Shown one piece after another: positions 1,372 to 41,267 of a DNA stretch of 64,000 nucleotides. The DNA comes from Vermamoeba vermiformis (Eukaryota). A program made the position numbers and the translations under genes. The stretch covers positions 1 through 64,000 of the forward strand of contig JBEWZL010000296.1 in NCBI GenBank assembly GCA_045837725.1. The letters run 5' to 3'. Under the pieces are notes generated by a model. It saw only the letters and a program-made list of their open reading frames with translations, did not search any database and was not told where the DNA came from. Each line of letters starts with the position of its first letter. The stretch's first letter is position 1.

Positions 1372-4170
1372 TTAGAAGAGTTTAGCAACAGTAGCGGGGA
1401 TATTGTACTGCGCGTAATCGATGGTGACAGTGTACCCAGTGTTATCATTAGGACCCACATAGAGCGTCAATTGACCGACGACATCGAGATGAATGATCTC
1501 CCAGAAAGCTTTGAACGGCAGATCCAGTGTCGTGGCCTTGACGGGCAACCTCGGTGTCTCGATTTTTGCAAGCGGAGGCATCACGATTGAAATGCCTGCT
1601 TTAACAAAATCTAAGTCGAGCACAGCGATCGATTCGTTCTTATAAATCACTCGGACGTTAGATCCGAGCATTCGAACTTCCGTGTTGAACGGGTTCGAGC
1701 AGTTCATGTTGGTTGGAATGGTCTTGGATTTCAAGAATAAAATCGCATCGAAATGCAATAAAGCGAAGGTCACGAGTGTTTCGTTGAGTGGTGGAATGGC
1801 CAGTGAGGTCGTAAAGTTCGAAAATCCAGCTTGCAAGTACGGATAATCTGTCGCGTTGCTAGCACCTGAAAGTGACACTTCCAATGCCTCGCCTGAAGAA
1901 CAATTGATGAGTTAAGTAGAAACGAACATATATGTCTATTCTTACCGGCAACGTAACGCGCAAGAAACTCTCGTGCCAACTCTGGATGTTCTGCTGACGC
2001 GACAAAGTTGCTGTAAACTAGCATGTTGTGATTGGGACCGGGTTTCGTGACAAAACTAGGCAAAGTGCTGTTGCCCATATGAACGCCCTTATAAAACAAA
2101 TCTAATGACACTGCAAAGAATAAACCATTAGTTAATAAAAAAAACATCAACGTTGATCAAAATATCGAACCTCGTCCGAGATCCAAGTACGCGTCCGAAG
2201 GATTGATAATGGTCAGGTGAAGGATCATCTTAATGCCGTTAAAGAATCCTCCGACAATCGATACGTCATCAATATTCATATAACCTTGCAAGTTCTTCAG
2301 ACCTACAATACGAATGTTAGCACGTGCGAAGAAATTGACTCGTTGGAAGTACCTTTAATAGTGACACTTTGGTCCAGTTCGACGCCTTGCACGGTGATAT
2401 TTCCAATAGACAAAGTGCTCAATGCGTCAGTCTTGCCGACTAAAGCAAAAGGCACCTCTGCTTGCGACAGAAAACTTGTGACAAAGTCGTCGAAAGTCGA
2501 GTCAACTGTCAGTGTTCCGTTCAACTGCGCCTCGTAGCTCAGCGGCGCTACTTCGGTCAAATCAATTTGGTCCGGGAAATTCTCGAATAAACCGGCCAAT
2601 CGTTGTTGGAACATCACTTTGGTGTCATGCAGCACCATACTAAATAATATTATTAAGACTTCATTACGATCATTAATTTTGACGTACCTTTGCATGACAA
2701 TAGGCGCCTCGGAGCCTAATGGATTGATAATCGTAACAGTCGAATCAGTGCGCAAAGTGAGTGAGTTGCGCGAGTTCGGATCAACGACTAAAGCAAGAGA
2801 ATTGATAGCGAATGACTTGACAAGTTCCATCTTCTGGCCCTGGATCTGGTTCTGAATGGCAAATCCACTAAACGCTCGGCTAAACAGCGGTACTGACGAT
2901 GCATTAGCAGCACCCACGACTGAAATATCGATCAATTGGCCCGCGAAAAACAACGACATCATTTCTCCGGCAATGGTTAAATTGTCCGGCTTAATAATTG
3001 CCTTGCTAGCCATGACGTTAACTACAAAATAATTAGAAAATTAAATTCTAAGAAAAAAATTTGACTTACGGCCAGGCACTAATGAAGCATTTGAAACGAC
3101 TACAGGACCCATATACGAATCTTTGTAATATAAGCCGAAATATAAGTCACCTAATGGCTCAATAGTGATATAAGTAGGATTGTAGCTCGTCATTGTCGTG
3201 TAGAGAATAATCTCGTCTTTTGTACTGTGCGTCATGTCCACATCCGAAATAGTCGTATTTTTCAACCCATCAAAACCTTAATAGTACCATCGTTAGTACG
3301 ATTATTACTAAATATGGCAATAGTTGTAGTTTAGATGTACCTGGCAAGGTGATTTCTTTTTCAATATTAACAGGACCAATAGTTACTCCGAATGCTTGCA
3401 CTTGCGAGTTCAATTGAAACGTTGTAGTGACATTAATGCTCCTAGTCAAGTCCTTATTGAATTCTACGAATGCTGTTTGATTCACTACTGCTGCAGTGCC
3501 ATTCAGAACCACATCTGTTGAATTGTTCGATGGCAGGAGCAGATCTGGCAGTGCTAGCGATAGAACTGCTTGGTTATTGTGCCATATAGTACAATTAACG
3601 CCAGTAGCTTTAGCGTCGATGGATCCAGGGTTGCGGATGCGTGCCTTGGTGATTAGCAGAAGCGAGTCCCGTTTTGGATCTGTTATCGTCAACTCGGTGA
3701 AAGTGATCTCTATTTGATTAGCCATATTCTGCGCTACTTTAGGTACAACAAAGAACCAAGACAGCACGCCAGCTGCCGCTAGAAATGTAATTATGGATGC
3801 AACAATAATTATATTCCGCTTCCATGGCTTCAATCCTGGTTTTTTCGGTGGCTGATAATATTCCTTTAATATTATTGTATAAATATAATAATATTTTCTA
3901 CAAAGCACAAGTATTATTCAATAGAAAAATCGAGATCTATTTATAGAGACTCTTTGAAATCAAAATTAATGATATAAGTTCAAAAATACGAATAATACAT
4001 ATAATTAGTGCTAAACTAAAATTTTGAATGAACAGTAATTAAATACTGTCTCAAGAATTATTTTCGTTTTGGAGAACAAGAAAATTAATCAATTGCCATT
4101 GAAAGTTATTAATTCTTACCTTTTCAAAGTCTAATAGTGGTACGTTGTCGTCATCATATGAATTTATCAT
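1372..4170 (-). CDS. Single-pass membrane protein with repeated LEA2/DUF3712 (Tag1-like) beta-rich domains
   Basis: First exon MINSYDDDNVPLLDFEK (ATG 4170, then a gtaag donor), then a TM helix (IIIVASIITFLAAAGVLSWFFVV). Repeated NP...LGDL.F.LYY....MG motifs occur in ORFs 3270-3908, 3041-3265, 2303-3013, 1770-2150 and 1372-1884. Confidence 0.7.
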
Positions 4171-5487: not shown

Positions 5488-6929
5488 TTATACATTAGCC
5501 ACTGGCGGGACTGTGCTAGCCTTGCGCTCGTTGATCAAGAGCGGCGAGTAGACATTGACGGCGCTGCTAGAGTTCGTTGACTTGCCGCTGTTTGTTTTAT
5601 TGCTCGGGCGACCAGCAGGACGCAGAATGATAAGCTAAAGACCGAATAAGTGAGTCAAATAATACTATTATATAATATGAGTGATATATTTACCATCAGA
5701 ATCAAGGGGATAAGCTCTAAGCAGAAAAAGTACACGAGATCCAACCAGACCCAGTCCGCGAGCGGCATGAACGTGCCGACACTAACACAACATTAGATAT
5801 GGCTCATGTAGAGAAGGCATTATAGTACTACACTCGTGTAATGTGTATGTGGTGTAGTGTAATGAAAACTTACATTGTGATGACGGCACGAGCGACGAAA
5901 CAGAGCGTGCACAGCAGCGTCAAGATCTTCACTTTAGGCAACACAGTATCGCGCATTTTAGTCAACAAAGGTCCACCGTGCAAAAACTTGGCATAAAATC
6001 TGCAAAAGAAATGTTAGATTGAATTTCCAAATGTCGCTACGTCCTTTCGAACGAATTCTTGATAGAATTTTCTAATTGTAATTACGGAATAATAATAGTA
6101 ATATAATTAAATATGATAATAAGTACCTTCCACCGTATACTACAAATCCAATCGCTGTTGTTATGTACAATCCACCGTCAAAGCAGAAGAGGATCTGCTC
6201 AACAAGTGTAGAGGCATCAGGCACGTCAGTGTGGTCCTCGTGCACCGATTCATATAAAATCCAGTCGAGGCCTAATAGCGTAACTACAATTAAATACATC
6301 ACTGCGGTTACGCTAAAGTAGATTGGCCGCAGTCTTTGGATGTTCTTTTCTCCACCGCCATAAGCGTTGTGATATATTTCGGCCCTATAATTAACGTGTC
6401 AATAATAATATTCAAGATCAATGAGATGGGCGCGCATCTTGTTTCCATTTCTGATCGTTGCAAGTACAATCTGAATCCTCGGAACTGAAACAGGTCTTAA
6501 AGTTAATTGTTGTGCTTACCATAAGAACAAAATAATTAAGTAGCATGAAAAGAAGAAAAAGGAGGGAACCAAGTTCAACGCTAGGTTAATAAAGTTGAGC
6601 ATCTCGATTTTGTGCTCCATAACATAAGGCTGCAGAGCGAAAAATACAGTCCTCGCTAAATAAATTAGTTAGATATTAATAATATAATATTATAGATTCT
6701 AAATGTGGTTTATGAAATTTAAAAATAAAATTATTTGTTTTTTTTGATCGCGATTCGTACTTATCGTTCCCAATAGCAACATCGTCATAAATGTCCTTTG
6801 CCATAAGTGTGATAAATTTCCTGTCTTTTTAAGTCTATACATGCGATGGCCAATAACAAATAACAAAAGGATGTACAATCCCGTCAGCACAAAGTGGCTG
6901 ATGTCATATTCAGCGTGTGTTAACTCCAT
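5488..6929 (-). CDS. THH1/TOM1/TOM3-like multi-pass (about 7 TM) membrane protein
   Basis: Spliced exons give successive TM helices with NLVPSFFFFSCYLIILFL, GFVVYGGR, CTLCFVARA and YFFCLELIP. Stop after ...VPPVANV at 5488. Confidence 0.75.
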
Positions 6930-33779: not shown

Positions 33780-34423
33780 TTAGTAATCGTCGTGTCTGTT
33801 GTAACGATCACCGCCACCACGGCCACCGCGGAAACCGCCACCACGGCCTCCACCGCGACCACCACGGAAACCGCCACCTTCTGTTAATAAACCGAGTTAG
33901 ATTTGGATTTTGATGCGGTTGATCAAAAATTTGCAAAAAAAATCGAAATGAAGATCGGACCACAGGATAGTGATGGTCACGATTAGGATATTACTGATCT
34001 TATAAAGATCATATTTACCTCTTCTATCACCATAAGGAGAATCTCTGCGATCACCACCGCGGAAACCACCGCCACGGCCTCCACCGAAGCCACCACGGCG
34101 AGAACCACCGTCGTCTATATTAACAGTGCGTTAGTAACATGTTTTAACAATGATCGGAGAGTTTCTGACTTACCAGACTTGGGGGTAGCAAGATCGCATC
34201 GGATGTTACGGCCATCCAAATCGGCGCCGTTCATCTTAGCAATGGCAGCTTCAGCGTCATCCTTGCTAGCAAAGACGACGAAACCGAAGCCCTTGGACTT
34301 GCCGGTGTCGCGGTGAATAACGACTTGAGCAGATTCGACTTCACCGTAGGGTTCGAAAGCTTGACGAAGAGAATCGTCATTAGTAGCCCAGGCGAGACCT
34401 CCAACGAAAACTTTAGCAGACAT
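33780..34423 (-). CDS. Glycine-rich RNA-binding protein (one RRM + RGG tail; GRP/CIRBP-like)
   Basis: RNP2 VFVGGL, RNP1 KGFGFVVF and two downstream RGG/FRGG exons. Stop after ...RHDDY at 33780. Confidence 0.92.
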
Positions 34424-34583
34424 GATGTTTGATGTATGTGATGTGTTTAACGAATGAGACAGAAATTTTTTTGCTCTTTTGTCGTTTTTTTTTGCTGCGC
34501 AAAAATTTCAGCGGATGCAGATCGCGAAGAAATATTTCAACCAATCAACAACCAATCAAATTCTTCACCGTTAACCGTTCACA

Positions 34584-37500
34584 ATGGTACGCTCGGTTAT
34601 TAGGTTCTTCGGGCTGAACATTGTCAAGATCCATTGCAATGTCTGCGAGGAAGTGTTGGATGAGAAATTCGTCCCGTGGGATTACATGTGCTGGACATGT
34701 GCCAATTTCGATTTATGCGAGAAGTGCTACAAAAATAAAAAGAATAGGCACGGACACGAGTTTCATAAACAATTAGGTGGGTAGTTTATGAAATCCGGTA
34801 AGAAAAAATCTAAATTTAATTTGCTAGTAACTGGCAAACATCCGAGAAATGGCAAAACAGTCTGCCAAATATTATGGTAATATTGAATTCGCTTTTTTAG
34901 TATTTAATTTAACGGTCAAAATTAGCGAGTCATTCGAACTGTATGCCACCCGGCCAGTTCTAGGCTGGAGAACGAAGAAAAAAGATTTATCATGGGACGA
35001 AAAGTTCACGTGGATCACTTACCGCGAGCTAAAAACCATGACAGACAATTTTGCGCAGAGGATTATTGGAGATCGGTCTCAAAAAAGTAGAATGTCAACT
35101 GCATCAACGTTGTATACTAACGCATTTGTAGGAGGATATAGTGGGCGTATCAGGCATTAATAGAGTCGAGTGGTTCGTCGCCGATCTAGCAACGTAAGAT
35201 AAAATTTGTTTTTATAATACTTCTAACCTCCTTAATAAGGATATTTTCTAAAGCAGTAACAGTCCCTATTCATACTACGTATGGTAAGTCTAGCTAAGTA
35301 ATTGTAGCTTTCGTGGCTAATTTGATTTTAATTGCAGACGAAAAAGTCGTTGAATTTATTTTAGAGCAAACTGAGCTCAAAATTGTTGTCTGTTCCGTCG
35401 ATTTAATAGAAAAAGTACGTAATAGGCGTTTATATAGTGATAAAGGATTAAAATTAAGCGATAATTTTTTTGGCAGTTCGCGGTTGCTGAAGACTCGTGT
35501 CCTAAATGGGAAATCTTAGTTTGCATGGACAATGTCAAACAAAAGGACTTGCCAATGCAATTCAAGAGGATAAAGTACTACACTTTCAACGATATAATGA
35601 AGCTCGTAAGTCACAATAGATCTGACCCGCGAGAAAAGGGCGAAGTAACATTTTTGTTATTGTAGGGCAAGAAGTCAAAGCTCAATCCGCACGACATACC
35701 CGACCAGAACGAAAACGACATGTTCACAATCAATTACACGAGTGGCAGCACTGGCATGCCAAAGGGTGTCATGCACTCGAACAAGGCTTTTTTGGCTGGT
35801 AAGAGCAAGCGATTAATTAACTTAGTAGCTAAAGTTTGTATCCCATAACTTAATTACAAGAATGGTGAAATTTTGCAAACGGATCTGATCGACAGATCCA
35901 CCTATCTTCTGAATATGAATGGCGACTTTTACTGATTTTGATGCTTACGACTATATCATAGGCTTAACAAAGTTCCCCGACACGATGGCCGTAACATTCA
36001 GCTACGAGCCACTGGCGCACAGCACGCGTCAAAATGACATCCAATTCTTCACGAATGGTGGTCGAATAGGACTCATCTCAGAGCTTAAAAATCTGTTTGA
36101 AGACTGTCAAATGGTCAATCCGACCACTATGGCTGGCGTGCCTCGTGTGTGGAACAAATTGTACAGTGAGTTCAACGAGGCTTTGTCCGCTGCTACACAG
36201 GGCCAGCCTAAAGAGGTAAAGAGCATCAATATACTTACTATACACGTGCTAATATGACCTTATGTTTAGCAACATCGAGCTATTGAGCGAAAAGTGCTGA
36301 GAGAGTTCGGCAAATTGCTCGGCAATCGCATCGAGGTAATCAGTGTTGGCGGAGCTCCGCCGAGCAAAGCAGTGATGAATTTCTTGCGACGATGCTTCCG
36401 ATGCTTTGTCGTTGACGGCTATGGCATCACTGAGGTGGGAGGTGTTACTGCAGATAGCACAGTAGACAACGATGCTCGTAAGAAGTTCACTCCATTGATT
36501 TGTTGGACACGAGTACCTGACGCTAATTTTATGACAGAATTGAAGCTGGTCGATTGGATGGAGTATAAGACCACCGATGATCCTCCTCGAGGCGAGATCG
36601 TAGTAAAAAGGTATGACTTAATTTGGTTACTTTTTTTAATTCGCACTTTCAGTCGCCAAATGGCCGCGGGATATTTCAAGAACGAAAAAGCCACGTAAGT
36701 GCGTCAATACTAAGAATATAACGATTTAATGCATTTGTATGGTAGCTCTGATGCTTTCAAGGACGGGTGGTTTCATACGGGAGATATCGGCGAGATGACT
36801 AAAACAGGATTAAAAGTTATTGGAAGAAAGAAACAAATCTTCAAGTTAGCGCAAGGCGAGTACGTTAGCCCTGAGCGACTCGAAAACATCTTTCAAAAGA
36901 GCGAATTTATCGATCAAATATTTATTCATGGCGATTCTTATCAAACTTACTTGGTACGTTTCCAAAGCCTTTATTACCATAAAAGGAAAAAAATCTAAAA
37001 TTCTCCCTAGGTAGCCGTTATTGTCATCAATACGGGTATTGTTATTCATTGGGCGAAGGGCAAAGGATTAGACGTAAGTTTACACGGTACTTACGCAGAA
37101 CTCGTCGCTGAGCAATGTTCTATTTTTAGACTTCAAACTTGGACAAACTATGCACGTCAAATGAGCTTTTCGAACAGATCATGTTTGAAATAGTCAAGTA
37201 CTCCACGGTAGAGAAGTTACTGCCATATGAGATCCCGCGTAACTATCATTTGACTACGGAGAAATTCACTATTGAGAACAAGAGAATGACGAGCTCTGAA
37301 AAGATTTGCAGACCTCAATTGGAAGCAGATTACAAGCAGTTGTTGCAAGACTTGTACAAGACCGCTGATGGCGCGACAGGTTAGTGTTCTTATTTTCCTT
37401 TTATGGAAATATCGATTAATAATCATTTGCAGAGGACAAACTCGTGCTAAATGAAGCTAACATTAAGAGACTGATGAATAACTTCACGCAAGAGACCGTC

Positions 37501-39742
37501 GACAAAGTGTTGACTGACGCGTTGAATCTGCCGAGTACGTAACCCTTGTTTCATGAATATCGTTGTCTAATGACACGTGTCATATAGAGGGTGCCGACAA
37601 GAAGTCTTTTGTGCAGCTTGGTGGTGATTCTCTGTCGGCCGTGAAGTTTGTCAACCTTCTGAACAATACCCTCTCCATCAAGGTACGAAAACAGTTTAGT
37701 GCTAATGGACCAACAGAGTTTCGTATTAATTCTAATTTTAGATGCAACCCGAGGACGTGTTCAAGAACGATAACATTGAAGACTTTGCAAAGTTAGTCAA
37801 AGATCGATGGGAACAAAATTTTAAGGATCAACCTACGACACCTGCACAGACAAAGCCAGACGACAACAACAGCAGTGTTAACGACACTAATGCCAATAAT
37901 ACTAACGTAAAGCCCGAAGAGACTAACCCCACGGTCAGTACCACCTACGCGGAGCCAAAGGAGTCGATGCATACGCTGCCTTTCATGGTGACCAACACTG
38001 AAAAATTCGATCCGGAGTTGATTAAATTGGACGAGAGTATTCAATTTGCATCAGCAGAGACGCGTGTCGCTCAGCCAAAGAACGCGTTTTTGACAGGTGT
38101 CACTGGCATCCTTGGCGTGTTCATTTTGTCAGAGTTGATGGAACAAACAGAATTTACTATCTATTGCCTCGTCCGTGATCGTAAGTAATGCATATTTTCC
38201 GTAAACCAACTAATTGACTTATTTCTAAGTGACTAGCCTTGGTAAAACAAATCCAACATTTGACGATAAGAAGGCAAAGAAGCGCATAAAGTCTGCCATG
38301 AAAAGAGCAGGCCTGTGGAGACATAGATATGGAAAGAGATTAGTACCTGTAAGTATTTGTGAACGTGGTATTGTATAGCCGACTTGCGAAAACTGACTTC
38401 TCGACTAGATTGCTGGAGACTTGTCATTACCCCTCCTAGGCCTCTCGAAAGACCGCTTTGAGCAATTGTGCACCGAAATCGACATCGTCTATCACAACGG
38501 TGCAGCAGTGAACTCCATTCAAACCTACGAGTATCATCGTGCTCCTAATGTACTTGGCACGCACGAGGTCATTCGGTTGGCGGCCACGAACAAAATCAAG
38601 CCATTGCACCACGTGTCCACATTATCTGTGTTTGAAAACATTGGTGTTGGTAAGTACACGTGACCATAGACTTTGAACTGGTTGACACCAATTTTTCCTA
38701 TTTAGGCAAGTGGTTCAGAGAAAACACAAAAATTCGTACGGTGAATTGTCCTGAGTCCGGTTATGGCCGTAGCAAATATGAAGCCGAGTTACTTTGCGAA
38801 CTGGCGAGAGAAAAGGGCTTACCGATCGCTATGTACAGACCTGGATCTGTTTCAGGTACACGGTGGATCCGATTACATCTTTTCTTTATTATTTGCTTAA
38901 TTTGTTATCTTGTAGGTCATAGTCAAAGTGGCTATTTAAAAGAAACAGATTTCATTAATCGCATGCTGATTGGCATCATCAATATGGCGGCTTATCCCGA
39001 ACCATTGGCTTCAAGTCACATCGAATTTACTCCTGTAGATTACGTTACAAAGGCCATGGTCTATTTAAGGTAATGTCAACTTTTCATGAAAACAACTTCC
39101 TAATTTGGATCTCATGAAAAGTTTACGGCCAACGAGCATTGGTGAGGCGTTTCATTTGACCAGCCCGCCAGTATTGTACAAGAATATCTTTGCAGCTATT
39201 TCAAGCTACGGATATTTTCTCGAAGAAGTTCAACTCACCGAAGTTTGGGCGGCGGATCTGTACGACATGCCCGAGAACTTACTCTTCCCTTATTTAGACA
39301 TGTTCACTCGCAACGTTGTGCCGTACGCCAAAGAAGTCAACGACTTTAAGACAAAGCAAGCATTGAAAGGGTCCAATATCACGTGCCCGCCAGCCAATGA
39401 CGCGTTGTTTCACACCTACTTGAAGTTCATGGAACAAACCAAGCTGATTTTGCCACCAGATCCAAATGCGTCACCAATGCTCGACCGGCAAGTCCCTGCA
39501 CAGAAAATCAAAGTTAAGTTAGTCAGCCCGGGAAACATTTAAAAGGAATTCGCTCGTAAGTACAGAGATCAGATCAGTCAGGAAACTTGTTGACACTAAC
39601 CGCCGTATTCTTTGATAGGGAGAATAGTGGCAAGGTTTTTATAGCAAGATCTTGTCCTCGAGATTTTACTCGACGTAGTGCTGACGCGGTCAAACTTTGG
39701 TCAACGGGACCAAAACTGCCTAAAAGAGCGAAGACTGAGTAA
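34584..39742 (+). CDS. ZZ zinc finger fused to a carboxylic acid reductase-like A-T-R enzyme; apparent +1 frameshift near 35056
   Basis: ZZ: CNVC...CWTCANFDLCEKC...HGHEF. A domain: YTSGSTGMPKG, PLAHS, DGYGITE, WFHTGDIG and KLAQGEYVSPERLE. T domain: FVQLGGDSLSA. R domain: TGVTGILG, HNGAAVN, NVLGT, YGRSK and YRPG. The last exon (to 39742) is inferred; an alternative stop lies at 39542. Confidence 0.88.
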
Positions 39743-39804
39743 CAATTGTGAATTCATCGAGCAATTAATAACCACAAGAGGGTCATAGAGTATTAATAAT
39801 ACAA

Positions 39805-41267
39805 ATGTCTTGGACAGCGCACAAAGATCCTGAAGCAGTGAAAGAACACTTTGATCCCGACGACGTCGTCATAGAAAAAGTCAAACGTCTTGCTCAATGG
39901 GTGAGAGACAGCAAGCACTTTACTGCCTTTACGGGTGCAGGTGTTTCTACATCAGCAGGTAATAATTAGCTTGACAGTCTTTACTTAAAAATCAAAAATT
40001 TTAATTTAATTAGCCTAAATCCAATGTAAAATTTAAGATGCGTATTACTTCGCACAATTTATTGTAGGATTTATAACGCTTTCGCGTGCTTTTCGCTAAC
40101 TTGAAGAATCGCATCAGGAATCCCGGATTTCAGAGGTCCCACTGGTGTTTGGACCCTTCGCGCCCAAGGCAAGGAGCCAGCGAATCGATCTACTTCAACT
40201 TTGAAGGCCATGCCAACTGCTACACATATGAGTTTGGTGCAATTGCAAAATACAGGTACGTGTTGCGATAAAGGAGATCCTTAGGTTCAATACAAAAACT
40301 GATCTTATTAGGGTACCTGAAGTATTTAATTAGCCAAAATACCGATGGTTTGCACAGACGTAGCGGTATATCACCAGACAAGGTACGTTAGGATTTATTA
40401 TTATTTTGGATCAGATCTGGTGCTTACCGAAAACTCGTTTAGCTCTCAGAATTACATGGTAATTCCAACTTAGAGCGATGTATTTCGTGCGGAAAAGAAT
40501 ATTTCCGAGATTTTCGTGCCGTTTCGAGCTACAAAAACGGTGCTCACGATCACAAGACTGGCCGTTCTTGTGTATCTTGCGGCGGAGATTTGCACGACAC
40601 GATCATCAATTTCAATGAAAATTTGCCTGAATTGCCGTTAAAGAAAGGATTCCAAAACGCGCGAGCATCAGATCTGATGTTGGTCCTTGGATCCAGCTTG
40701 ACCGTCAGCCCTGCAAAAACGATGCCCGAAACAGTGGCTAATAACGGCAAACGATTGGTCATTGTAAATTTGCAGAAGACTTATTTGGACAATGACGCGG
40801 CCATGGTGATTCATGCCAAGACGGATCAAGTCATGAATCTGCTTATGACCGAACTTGGCTTAGAAATTCCACAGTTCATTTTGCGACGACGAATTAAAGT
40901 TGATAAAAAATTGGACGAATTGGAATTGAGCGGCATTGAAGTGGATGGAACTCCAGCAACAATCATCCAGGGCCTGGAATACAAGTTTAATCAGAATGGA
41001 TCAGCCACGAAAACTGAACAATTGAAGATCAAGCTGGATCTGGCTGCTTATCAAACGGCTTTTATCAAAGTATACTTTTTTGGTAATTATAATGAGACAC
41101 CTATTGATTTGGAGATCCCGTTAAATCAACAAAATGACTTCAGTATTGTTTACGAGATTGGATTCAACCCTCAGACTGGTCAATGGAATATCGAAGGTCC
41201 GTTTAATGTGGAGAATATTATCACTAATAATACCAATACTACATCACGATATTGTCTTGTCCAATAA
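39805..41267 (+). CDS. NAD-dependent deacylase, class IV sirtuin (SIRT6/7-like) with a C-terminal extension ending CLVQ
   Basis: [31 protein letters not shown], ELHGN, two CxxC Zn pairs, DTIINF, LGSSL and IVNLQKT. Confidence 0.93.

Follow-up and report, generated by a model that had tools for sequence, protein, structure and literature searches.

The 64,000-nucleotide (nt) stretch of Vermamoeba vermiformis DNA analysed here (contig JBEWZL010000296.1 of assembly GCA_045837725.1, positions 1 to 64,000; hereafter, the window) carries at 34584-39542, on the forward strand, a gene whose product starts with a ZZ zinc finger and continues in frame into an adenylation domain (A), a carrier, or thiolation, domain (T) and a thioester reductase domain (R). 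The fusion of the ZZ exon to the A-T-R enzyme, proposed in the initial annotation, is borne out by spliced contigs of a relative, by a metagenome locus and by the transcript-derived proteins of two slime moulds; it is real and old. We consider it likely that this single gene encodes an enzyme with an adenylation domain of the long-chain acyl-CoA synthetase (ACSL) type, a carrier and a thioester reductase of the short-chain dehydrogenase/reductase (SDR) type, acting in the manner of a carboxylic acid reductase (CAR) and bearing its ZZ as a docking or regulating module.

The gene model was assembled by hand from open frames and splice signals, with one intron added from spliced contigs. It comprises 23 exons and 22 introns, ends at the stop codon 39540-39542 and yields a product of ~1218 residues. 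The reading frame is kept through all the GT-AG introns, which are 42-163 nt long, and the window is eukaryotic in look, with many short GT-AG introns and TACTAAC-like branch sites. The start codon (ATG, 34584-34586) follows shortly after an in-frame stop at 34572-34574. Exon 1 (34584-34776, +), which holds this start codon and the ZZ zinc finger, is 193 nt long, contains 64 whole codons and ends in phase 1 at TTAG/GTGGGT. Intron 1 (34777-34827, +; 51 nt, GTGGGT..TAG, phase 1) and intron 2 (34877-34925, +; 49 nt, GTAATA..TAG) link it in frame, via the 49-nt exon 2 (34828-34876, +) encoding a 16-residue linker, to ESFELYATRPVLGWR, the start of the adenylation domain. The spliced joints, TTAG/GTGGGT...GCTAG/TAACT and TTATG/GTAAT...ATTAG/CGAG, yield VTGKHPRNGKTVCQILCESFELYATRPVLGWR; if intron 1 were retained, the ZZ frame would terminate at the TAG 34782-34784.

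Evidence that these joints are used came from X1, a sequencing run from a relative with ~2-6% divergence from the window in the listed pieces. We guess that X1 is RNA: it fits complementary DNA because many introns are precisely lost and because a neighbouring RNA recognition motif (RRM) gene is covered at a depth of 131. The X1 contigs skip 10 of the 22 model introns exactly at GT..AG, introns 1 and 2 included, and an eleventh imprecisely; they also revealed a 60-nt in-frame intron at 36478-36537. The contig covering exons 1-3 contains the joints 34776>34828 (51 letters on the shorter side) and 34876>34926 (47 letters) at a depth of 2.5, like that of the other exon contigs (2.0-5.9). The splicing given in the initial annotation was exact, with both introns as stated.

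Raw RNA runs filed under the same species label (X4-X6) come from a more distant organism. The reads placed from them (142, 141 and 170) fall mostly on the RRM gene and on the conserved AMP-binding motif of another gene, and are uninformative on the expression of the ZZ-enzyme gene. As a side observation, six X4-X6 reads in all, with slightly different letters, skip the intron 36695-36745 (window 36694-36750), so that a homologue with the same intron position is transcribed in that organism.

Independent support was obtained from metagenome contigs scanned with the ZZ exon, which gave 22 loci. Two of them, L003 and L004 (4 mismatches between them in 6769 nt), matched all 64 residues of the ZZ exon at 77% identity and carried the whole gene behind it; the other 20, none of them followed by an A-T-R, were different ZZ proteins or weak matches. 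The L003 ZZ exon scores 29.7 bits against Pfam ZZ and ends in the same phase, with a better donor (GTAAGC), and introns 1 and 2 are both present. Each of the 22 window introns could be mapped to L003; 21 of the 22 donors are GT and one GC, and one acceptor was placed by hand. This locus encodes an unbroken protein of 1213 residues with the domain order ZZ, AMP-binding, PP-binding, NAD_binding_4 and with LGGDSLSA, TGVTGILG and YGRSK kept; it agrees with the window protein at 944 of 1207 aligned residues (78% identity). Two introns of L003 are absent from the window (3083-3234, 152 nt, and 4047-4100, 54 nt), and its last intron (5918-5968) is of the GC-AG type with the donor GCAAGT; the differences indicate recent intron gain or loss within the clade.

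The divergence between the window and L003 also speaks to how the ZZ is maintained. The ZZ exon shows 28.5 differences over 34.0 synonymous sites and 18.5 over 158.0 non-synonymous sites; in the adenylation domain the counts are 281.7 over 359.7 and 132.3 over 1377.3. Synonymous change is near saturation and non-synonymous change is low, alike in both regions, and thus the ZZ is selected as protein, as strongly as the enzyme. The exon 2 linker is under weaker constraint than its neighbours, with a ratio of non-synonymous to synonymous change of 0.27 over 16 codons.

The same order of domains was found in open reading frames (ORFs) of the EukProt transcript sets. P0101, from Physarum polycephalum (1152 residues), has ZZ at 16-59, AMP-binding at 102-465, PP-binding at 676-731 and NAD_binding_4 at 785-1020; P0216, from Ceratiomyxa fruticulosa (1138 residues), has ZZ at 27-65, followed by AMP-binding, PP-binding and NAD_binding_4. 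The slime-mould proteins and the window protein share 36% identity (401 of 1108 aligned residues), and a stretch MV(R/H)..FFG ahead of the ZZ is common to the window protein and Physarum P0101. A further Ceratiomyxa fruticulosa sequence, the 760-residue isoform P0109, is the sister of P0216, has ZZ and AMP-binding only and ends after the adenylation domain; the difference between the two could be due to alternative splicing or to an assembly artefact.

These findings bear on an alternative explanation, in which the ZZ ORF (34584-34784, 69 residues unspliced) is a separate small gene or an upstream ORF and the A-T-R enzyme begins downstream of it, at ATG 34788 (MKSGKKKSKFNLLVTGK...) or ATG 34850 (MAKQSAKYY...). 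Both frames are open in the window, ATG 34788 opening the exon 2 frame and ATG 34850 continuing unspliced into exon 3, and of all donors in the gene, GTGGGT of intron 1 looks weakest. The X1 contig nevertheless connects exon 1 with exons 2 and 3, L003 has its donor GTAAGC at the same phase and neither ATG (0 of 2 conserved), and in the Physarum and Ceratiomyxa ORFs the ZZ lies within the same polypeptide. In addition, a start at ATG 34850 would swap the conserved block before ESFELYATRP for intron-coded residues. A separate ZZ gene ending at 34784, an outcome that the initial annotation had kept open, runs counter to the X1 joints, to L003 and to the slime-mould ORFs; it is largely refuted, and we regard it as very improbable.

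While the fusion itself is unaffected, one base further on raises a question about the window copy. Near 35057 (+), just beyond the stretch 34584-35030 covered by the initial annotation, the window has one extra base relative to both relatives, seen as "left out 1" in X1 and as a one-base gap in L003. The window encodes the conserved peptide GLLEIGLKK in the +1 frame (ORF 35042-35131, ..RGLLEIGLKK..), and this spot is the only break in the protein alignment with L003, P0101 and P0109 (window FAQRIIGD..RSQKM versus FA.GL.EIGL...). Intron 3 (+) was modelled as 35087-35141 (55 nt); the orthologous intron, with its acceptor at 35131 (35087-35131, 45 nt), lets the window frame meet a stop shortly after, and the acceptor 35141, the next AG, restores the frame. 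A loose end of X1 at 35091 fits, in our reading, the 35131 acceptor. The extra base reflects either an error in the assembly or a frameshift of recent origin.

The window copy might then be a pseudogene or carry an assembly error, with relative-like splicing leaving the ZZ and ~80 residues. We hold this to be the less probable case. The base is absent in 2 of 2 relatives, the conserved GLLEIGLKK is in the +1 frame and no AG lies between the TACTAAC branch site and the orthologous acceptor, all of which fit such a loss. The other 3.6 kb of coding sequence is nevertheless intact and under strong purifying selection, and the acceptor 10 nt downstream rescues the frame at a cost of ~12 altered and 3 lost residues. 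A single-base assembly error would give an identical picture.

The enzyme part was delineated with Pfam profiles run on the exon translations (cut-offs: ZZ 21.4, AMP-binding 29.9, PP-binding 20.8 and NAD_binding_4 20.1 bits). Exons 3-15 (34926-37379, +) encode the acyl-CoA-synthetase-like adenylation domain, with AMP-binding on three exons at 44.9, 26.8 and 46.2 bits in genomic order, the 26.8-bit exon lying below the cut-off; the motifs TSGSTGMPKG, GYGITE and the block WFHTGDIG...GRKKQIFKLAQGEYV are present. The carrier domain (37433-37800, +) gives PP-binding at 26.1 bits on one exon, and its phosphopantetheine serine lies in LGGDSLSA, in exon 37588-37682, a motif shared with L003. A low-complexity Asn/Thr-rich linker follows (37801-38080, +), which aligns poorly and is the least conserved part of the protein. 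The thioester reductase domain (38081-39542, +) has the Rossmann motif TGVTGILG and the catalytic Tyr/Lys of YGRSK, with NAD_binding_4 on four exons (26.4, 84.2, 28.3 and 23.3 bits); GYGRSK is located in one of these, exon 38706-38855.

CARs (EC 1.2.1.30) reduce a free acid to an aldehyde with ATP and NADPH and depend on a phosphopantetheinyl transferase. In PMC5396282, a CAR is described as adenylation, phosphopantetheine-binding and thioester-reductase domains in one chain, with the adenylation domain N-terminal. The window protein, L003, P0101 and P0216 all have A, T and R in this order in one chain, and the carrier serine in LGGDSLSA, the Rossmann TGVTGILG and the catalytic YGRSK can be read from the gene model. 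The adenylation domain is not N-terminal; the ZZ exon and the linker come first, and for this reason we file the window protein as a variant architecture and not as a canonical CAR. It has an ACSL-type adenylation sequence, is fused to its own carrier and reductase, and falls outside the ACSL clade of 24 rows in a quick tree. The view that characterised CARs lack a ZZ is consistent with these observations, with no CAR among the PDB matches of the ZZ and no mention of zinc in the passages of PMC5396282 consulted.

The initial annotation had also likened the T and R motifs to those of bacterial CARs, and this resemblance stands only in part. In its favour, CAR-type chains make up four of the five best solved-structure matches of the C-terminal adenylation exon (6oz1, 5msc, 5mso and 5msp, 41.4-31.7 bits), although 6oz1 is deposited only as "Oxidoreductase"; the fifth-ranked match is a designed repeat protein. 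On the other side, the same exon, 36747-36953, is 55-65% identical to many eukaryotic long-chain acyl-CoA synthetases (best 120 of 2504 matches). The adenylation domain as a whole shares 31-34% of its residues with ACSLs over ~600 residues and 34% with the bacterial A-T-R protein P0004; judged by its sequence, it resembles long-chain acyl-CoA synthetases more than bacterial CARs. The reductase exon departs from CARs as well: its best PDB match is an entry titled MxaA (4u7w, 82.9 bits), followed by a polyketide synthase reductase (8v1x), and the best CAR reaches 51.6 bits.

This ranking of the reductase exon favours another view of the chemistry, in which the enzyme is not an aldehyde-forming CAR but a four-electron reductase forming fatty alcohols, or a loading and release module of another pathway. 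With the domain order and the motifs matching those of CARs, we find this possible but unlikely. Two-electron and four-electron reductases are not separable from sequence alone.

Turning to the N-terminal module, the window ZZ exon matches Pfam ZZ (PF00569) at residues 15-59 with 31.3 bits and an E-value of 1.8e-7. Its predicted ligands for two zinc ions are C18, C21, C36, C39, C45, C48, H56 and H58 (CxxC...CxxC...CxxC...HxH), and all eight, together with D43, are invariant across 5 aligned rows. An AlphaFold2 (AF2) model of the 64-residue exon has a mean predicted local distance difference test score of 76.7. When it was searched against the PDB with Foldseek, the top ranks were the ZZ domains of p62, p300, HERC2, CBP and Ada2, at a probability of 1.00 and target-normalised TM-scores of up to 0.77, with no match at E <= 0.001 for a model of 64 residues.

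In HERC2, as reported in PMC9001736, an acidic ZZ pocket formed by D2709, D2728 and D2730 holds the free alpha-amino group of N-termini, and D2709A or D2730A abolishes this binding. HMMER pairs DDFDFC of HERC2 with ANFDLC of the window, so that one Asp is kept (D43) and an Asn stands opposite D2728. The window and L003 share this motif and have Asn after the first Cys, a position that we take to correspond to D2709. Physarum P0101 has Asp after the first Cys and PDFDIC, with Asp at both positions; Ceratiomyxa P0216 has Asp after the first Cys and GNYDLC, with one Asn and one Asp. The residues at these mapped positions point to an acidic pocket that is complete in Physarum and weakened in the clade of the window.

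Recruitment of the enzyme to protein N-termini, or its regulation by them, had been suggested in the initial annotation. It is conceivable, but in our estimation improbable, that the ZZ reads a free protein N-terminus and thereby gates or places a fatty-acid reductase, the end being that of a partner or the enzyme's own MV(R/H) end acting as a cis latch. A stronger contender, which we put somewhat short of an even chance, is that the ZZ belongs to the adenylation domain as an integral structural or regulatory element and does not read N-termini; it might pack on the N-terminal subdomain, for example, or replace the N-terminal extensions of other acyl-CoA synthetases. The linker from the ZZ to the adenylation domain is only ~15 residues, the window and L003 have Asn at two of the three acidic pocket positions, and the bacterial proteins P0003 and P0004 have different N-terminal extensions (164 and 271 residues) at the same place. 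Some ACSLs of the set have hydrophobic N-termini, in a mixed pattern. Speaking for peptide reading instead are the Asp residues at all three mapped pocket positions of Physarum P0101, the invariance of D43 and the closest solved folds, which are those of peptide-binding ZZ domains, though this fold is common to all ZZ domains. The more specific idea that the ZZ replaces a membrane anchor found no clear support, as the N-terminal hydropathy of the 24 ACSLs was mixed.

The extensions of the two bacterial proteins (P0003 residues 1-164, P0004 residues 1-271) precede the adenylation domain and share an APWWEID stretch; neither gave a Pfam match or a ZZ. The N-terminus of this enzyme type seems to be an attachment site for accessory modules.

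How far the architecture extends was assessed by a protein search with the conserved exon 36747-36953. In the best 120 of its 2504 matches, PF00569 was present in two, P0101 and P0109, and the ZZ motif occurred in 3 of 218 fetched proteins. A quick tree built from the adenylation domains of 32 chosen rows (4 ZZ-A-T-R, 2 bacterial A-T-R, 24 ACSLs and 2 similar to non-ribosomal peptide synthetases) grouped the four ZZ-A-T-R rows with a Shimodaira-Hasegawa-like approximate likelihood-ratio test (SH-aLRT) support of 93 and placed the 24 ACSLs, apart from these, in their own clade with a support of 100. As it is present in public slime-mould protein sets, the ZZ-A-T-R architecture is not unique to the window. 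The initial annotation had allowed that the architecture might already be common and characterised: it does occur in at least three distant lineages, but we found no paper characterising it, nor, in full-text searches that covered literature other than subscription journals and supplements, any publication in which a ZZ is combined with a CAR, thioester reductase or acyl-CoA synthetase. ZZ-A-T-R appears to be a conserved, uncharacterised protein family.

Other searches added little to this distribution. When longer proteins were word-searched with the ZZ exon, two candidates came up, none of which scored; a search with the reductase exon gave 6 matches from 129 candidates, with a ZZ in 0 of 6; and nothing was found with the ZZ exon in prokaryote genome contigs. 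The whole-library search with the last exon returned 88 matches at E <= 0.001, of which P0007, a 109-residue fragment, was the only close relative. The second match, P0008, was spurious, being a NACHT-LRR protein matched via 34 short repeats. P0007 is the last exon of the gene annotated as a hypothetical protein on L001, a 4435-nt contig in a cyanobacterial assembly, whose positions 76-721 hold the 3' end of the gene in two matched segments of 76-86% protein identity. The remainder of the gene was not found in this contig or in its whole cyanobacterial assembly, and L001 resembles a eukaryotic contaminant there. When exon fragments were aligned with MAFFT on a bacterial scaffold, they were smeared, and the alignment was not used as a profile.

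The CAR mechanism, as given in PMC5396282, served as the template for the reaction sequence, which we derive from the families of the domains. In a first step, the acid would be adenylated with ATP; since the adenylation domain is of the ACSL type, the most plausible substrate is a long-chain fatty acid. The acyl group would then be transferred to the pantetheine arm on the Ser of LGGDSLSA, and reduction with NAD(P)H would release an aldehyde or possibly proceed onward to an alcohol. By analogy, the chemistry of the window enzyme is most likely CAR-like. Our best guess for the ZZ, a weaker part of the scheme, is that of a protein-contact module which, ~15 residues before the adenylation domain, would dock or regulate the reductase; the contact might be an N-terminal or other peptide of a partner protein, or the enzyme's own conserved MV(R/H) N-terminus.

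Several observations weigh against this picture of a ZZ-docked, CAR-like enzyme. The X1 support for joints 1 and 2 is a single contig of putative RNA at a depth of 2.5, and no X4-X6 raw read falls on the ZZ exon bins. The reductase exon is nearer to MxaA than to CARs, and so the product could be other than an aldehyde. The window and L003, as aligned, hold only one of the three pocket Asp residues of HERC2. With the acceptor 35131 the window sequence reaches a stop, and this copy may be broken. Finally, the support of 93 for a single ZZ-A-T-R clade, from the quick search, is below the tool's mark of 95.

CARs find wide use as biocatalysts, and the ZZ domains of ubiquitin, autophagy and chromatin proteins are known to read peptides. 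That the ZZ is kept as far as Physarum and Ceratiomyxa, at 36% identity, and is constrained like the enzyme, suggests an unknown layer of control or targeting in eukaryotic acid reduction. If the ZZ did read N-termini, it would be the first case of an N-degron-type reader built directly into a metabolic enzyme, and the state of protein N-termini would be tied to the production of lipid aldehydes in slime moulds and their relatives. In either case the family supplies eukaryotic CAR-like enzymes of the ACSL type, for which the Physarum transcript ORF is a ready construct. No new kind of chemistry is implied, and the architecture was already present, unnoticed, in public protein sets.

Two genes flank the ZZ-enzyme gene. 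On the reverse strand, a divergent gene for a glycine-rich RNA-binding protein (33800-34423) scores 89.2 bits for RRM_1 on 34118-34423; this is the RRM gene of high X1 depth, and it starts ~160 nt from the ZZ start codon. The short intergenic gap between its ATG (34423) and the ZZ start codon (34425-34583, no strand assigned) is presumably a promoter common to both genes. Directly 3' of the reductase gene lies a sirtuin-type gene (39772-41267, +), with 37.8 bits for the Sir2 family on the ORF 40443-41264.

Among known systems, the bacterial CARs (type I, for example those of Nocardia iowensis, Mycobacterium marinum and Segniliparus; 5msc, 5mso and 5msp) share with the window protein the A-T-R order, the LGGDSLSA carrier motif, the Rossmann TGxxGxxG and YxxxK, and are among the top matches of the reductase exon. 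They differ in having, as described in PMC5396282, an N-terminal adenylation domain without a ZZ, whereas the window gene is eukaryotic and intron-rich. The nearest full-length bacterial A-T-R proteins fetched, P0003 and P0004, are ~27-30% identical to the window protein (P0004 ~30%). The ACSL/FACS family has in common with the window adenylation domain the block WFHTGDIG...GRKKxIFKLAQGEY, which we take to be the "FACS signature"; its members stop after the adenylation domain and pass the acyl group to free CoA, whereas the window protein has a carrier, a reductase and a ZZ start.

The ZZ domains of p62/SQSTM1, HERC2 and p300/CBP belong, like that of the window, to the Pfam ZZ family, have eight zinc ligands and are the closest in predicted fold, and the Asp aligned to the second Asp of DDFDFC in HERC2 is invariant in the window family. 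They sit, however, in ubiquitin, autophagy or chromatin proteins, whereas the window ZZ heads a metabolic enzyme, has a longer loop between its first two zinc knuckles than peptide-binding ZZ domains and, compared with HERC2, has Asn in place of D2728 and Asn at the position presumed to match D2709. The closest counterparts in architecture are Physarum P0101 and Ceratiomyxa P0216, which, like the window protein, have the four domains in identical order and the ZZ inside their first 65 residues; they are only 36% identical to it, and neither has a described function.

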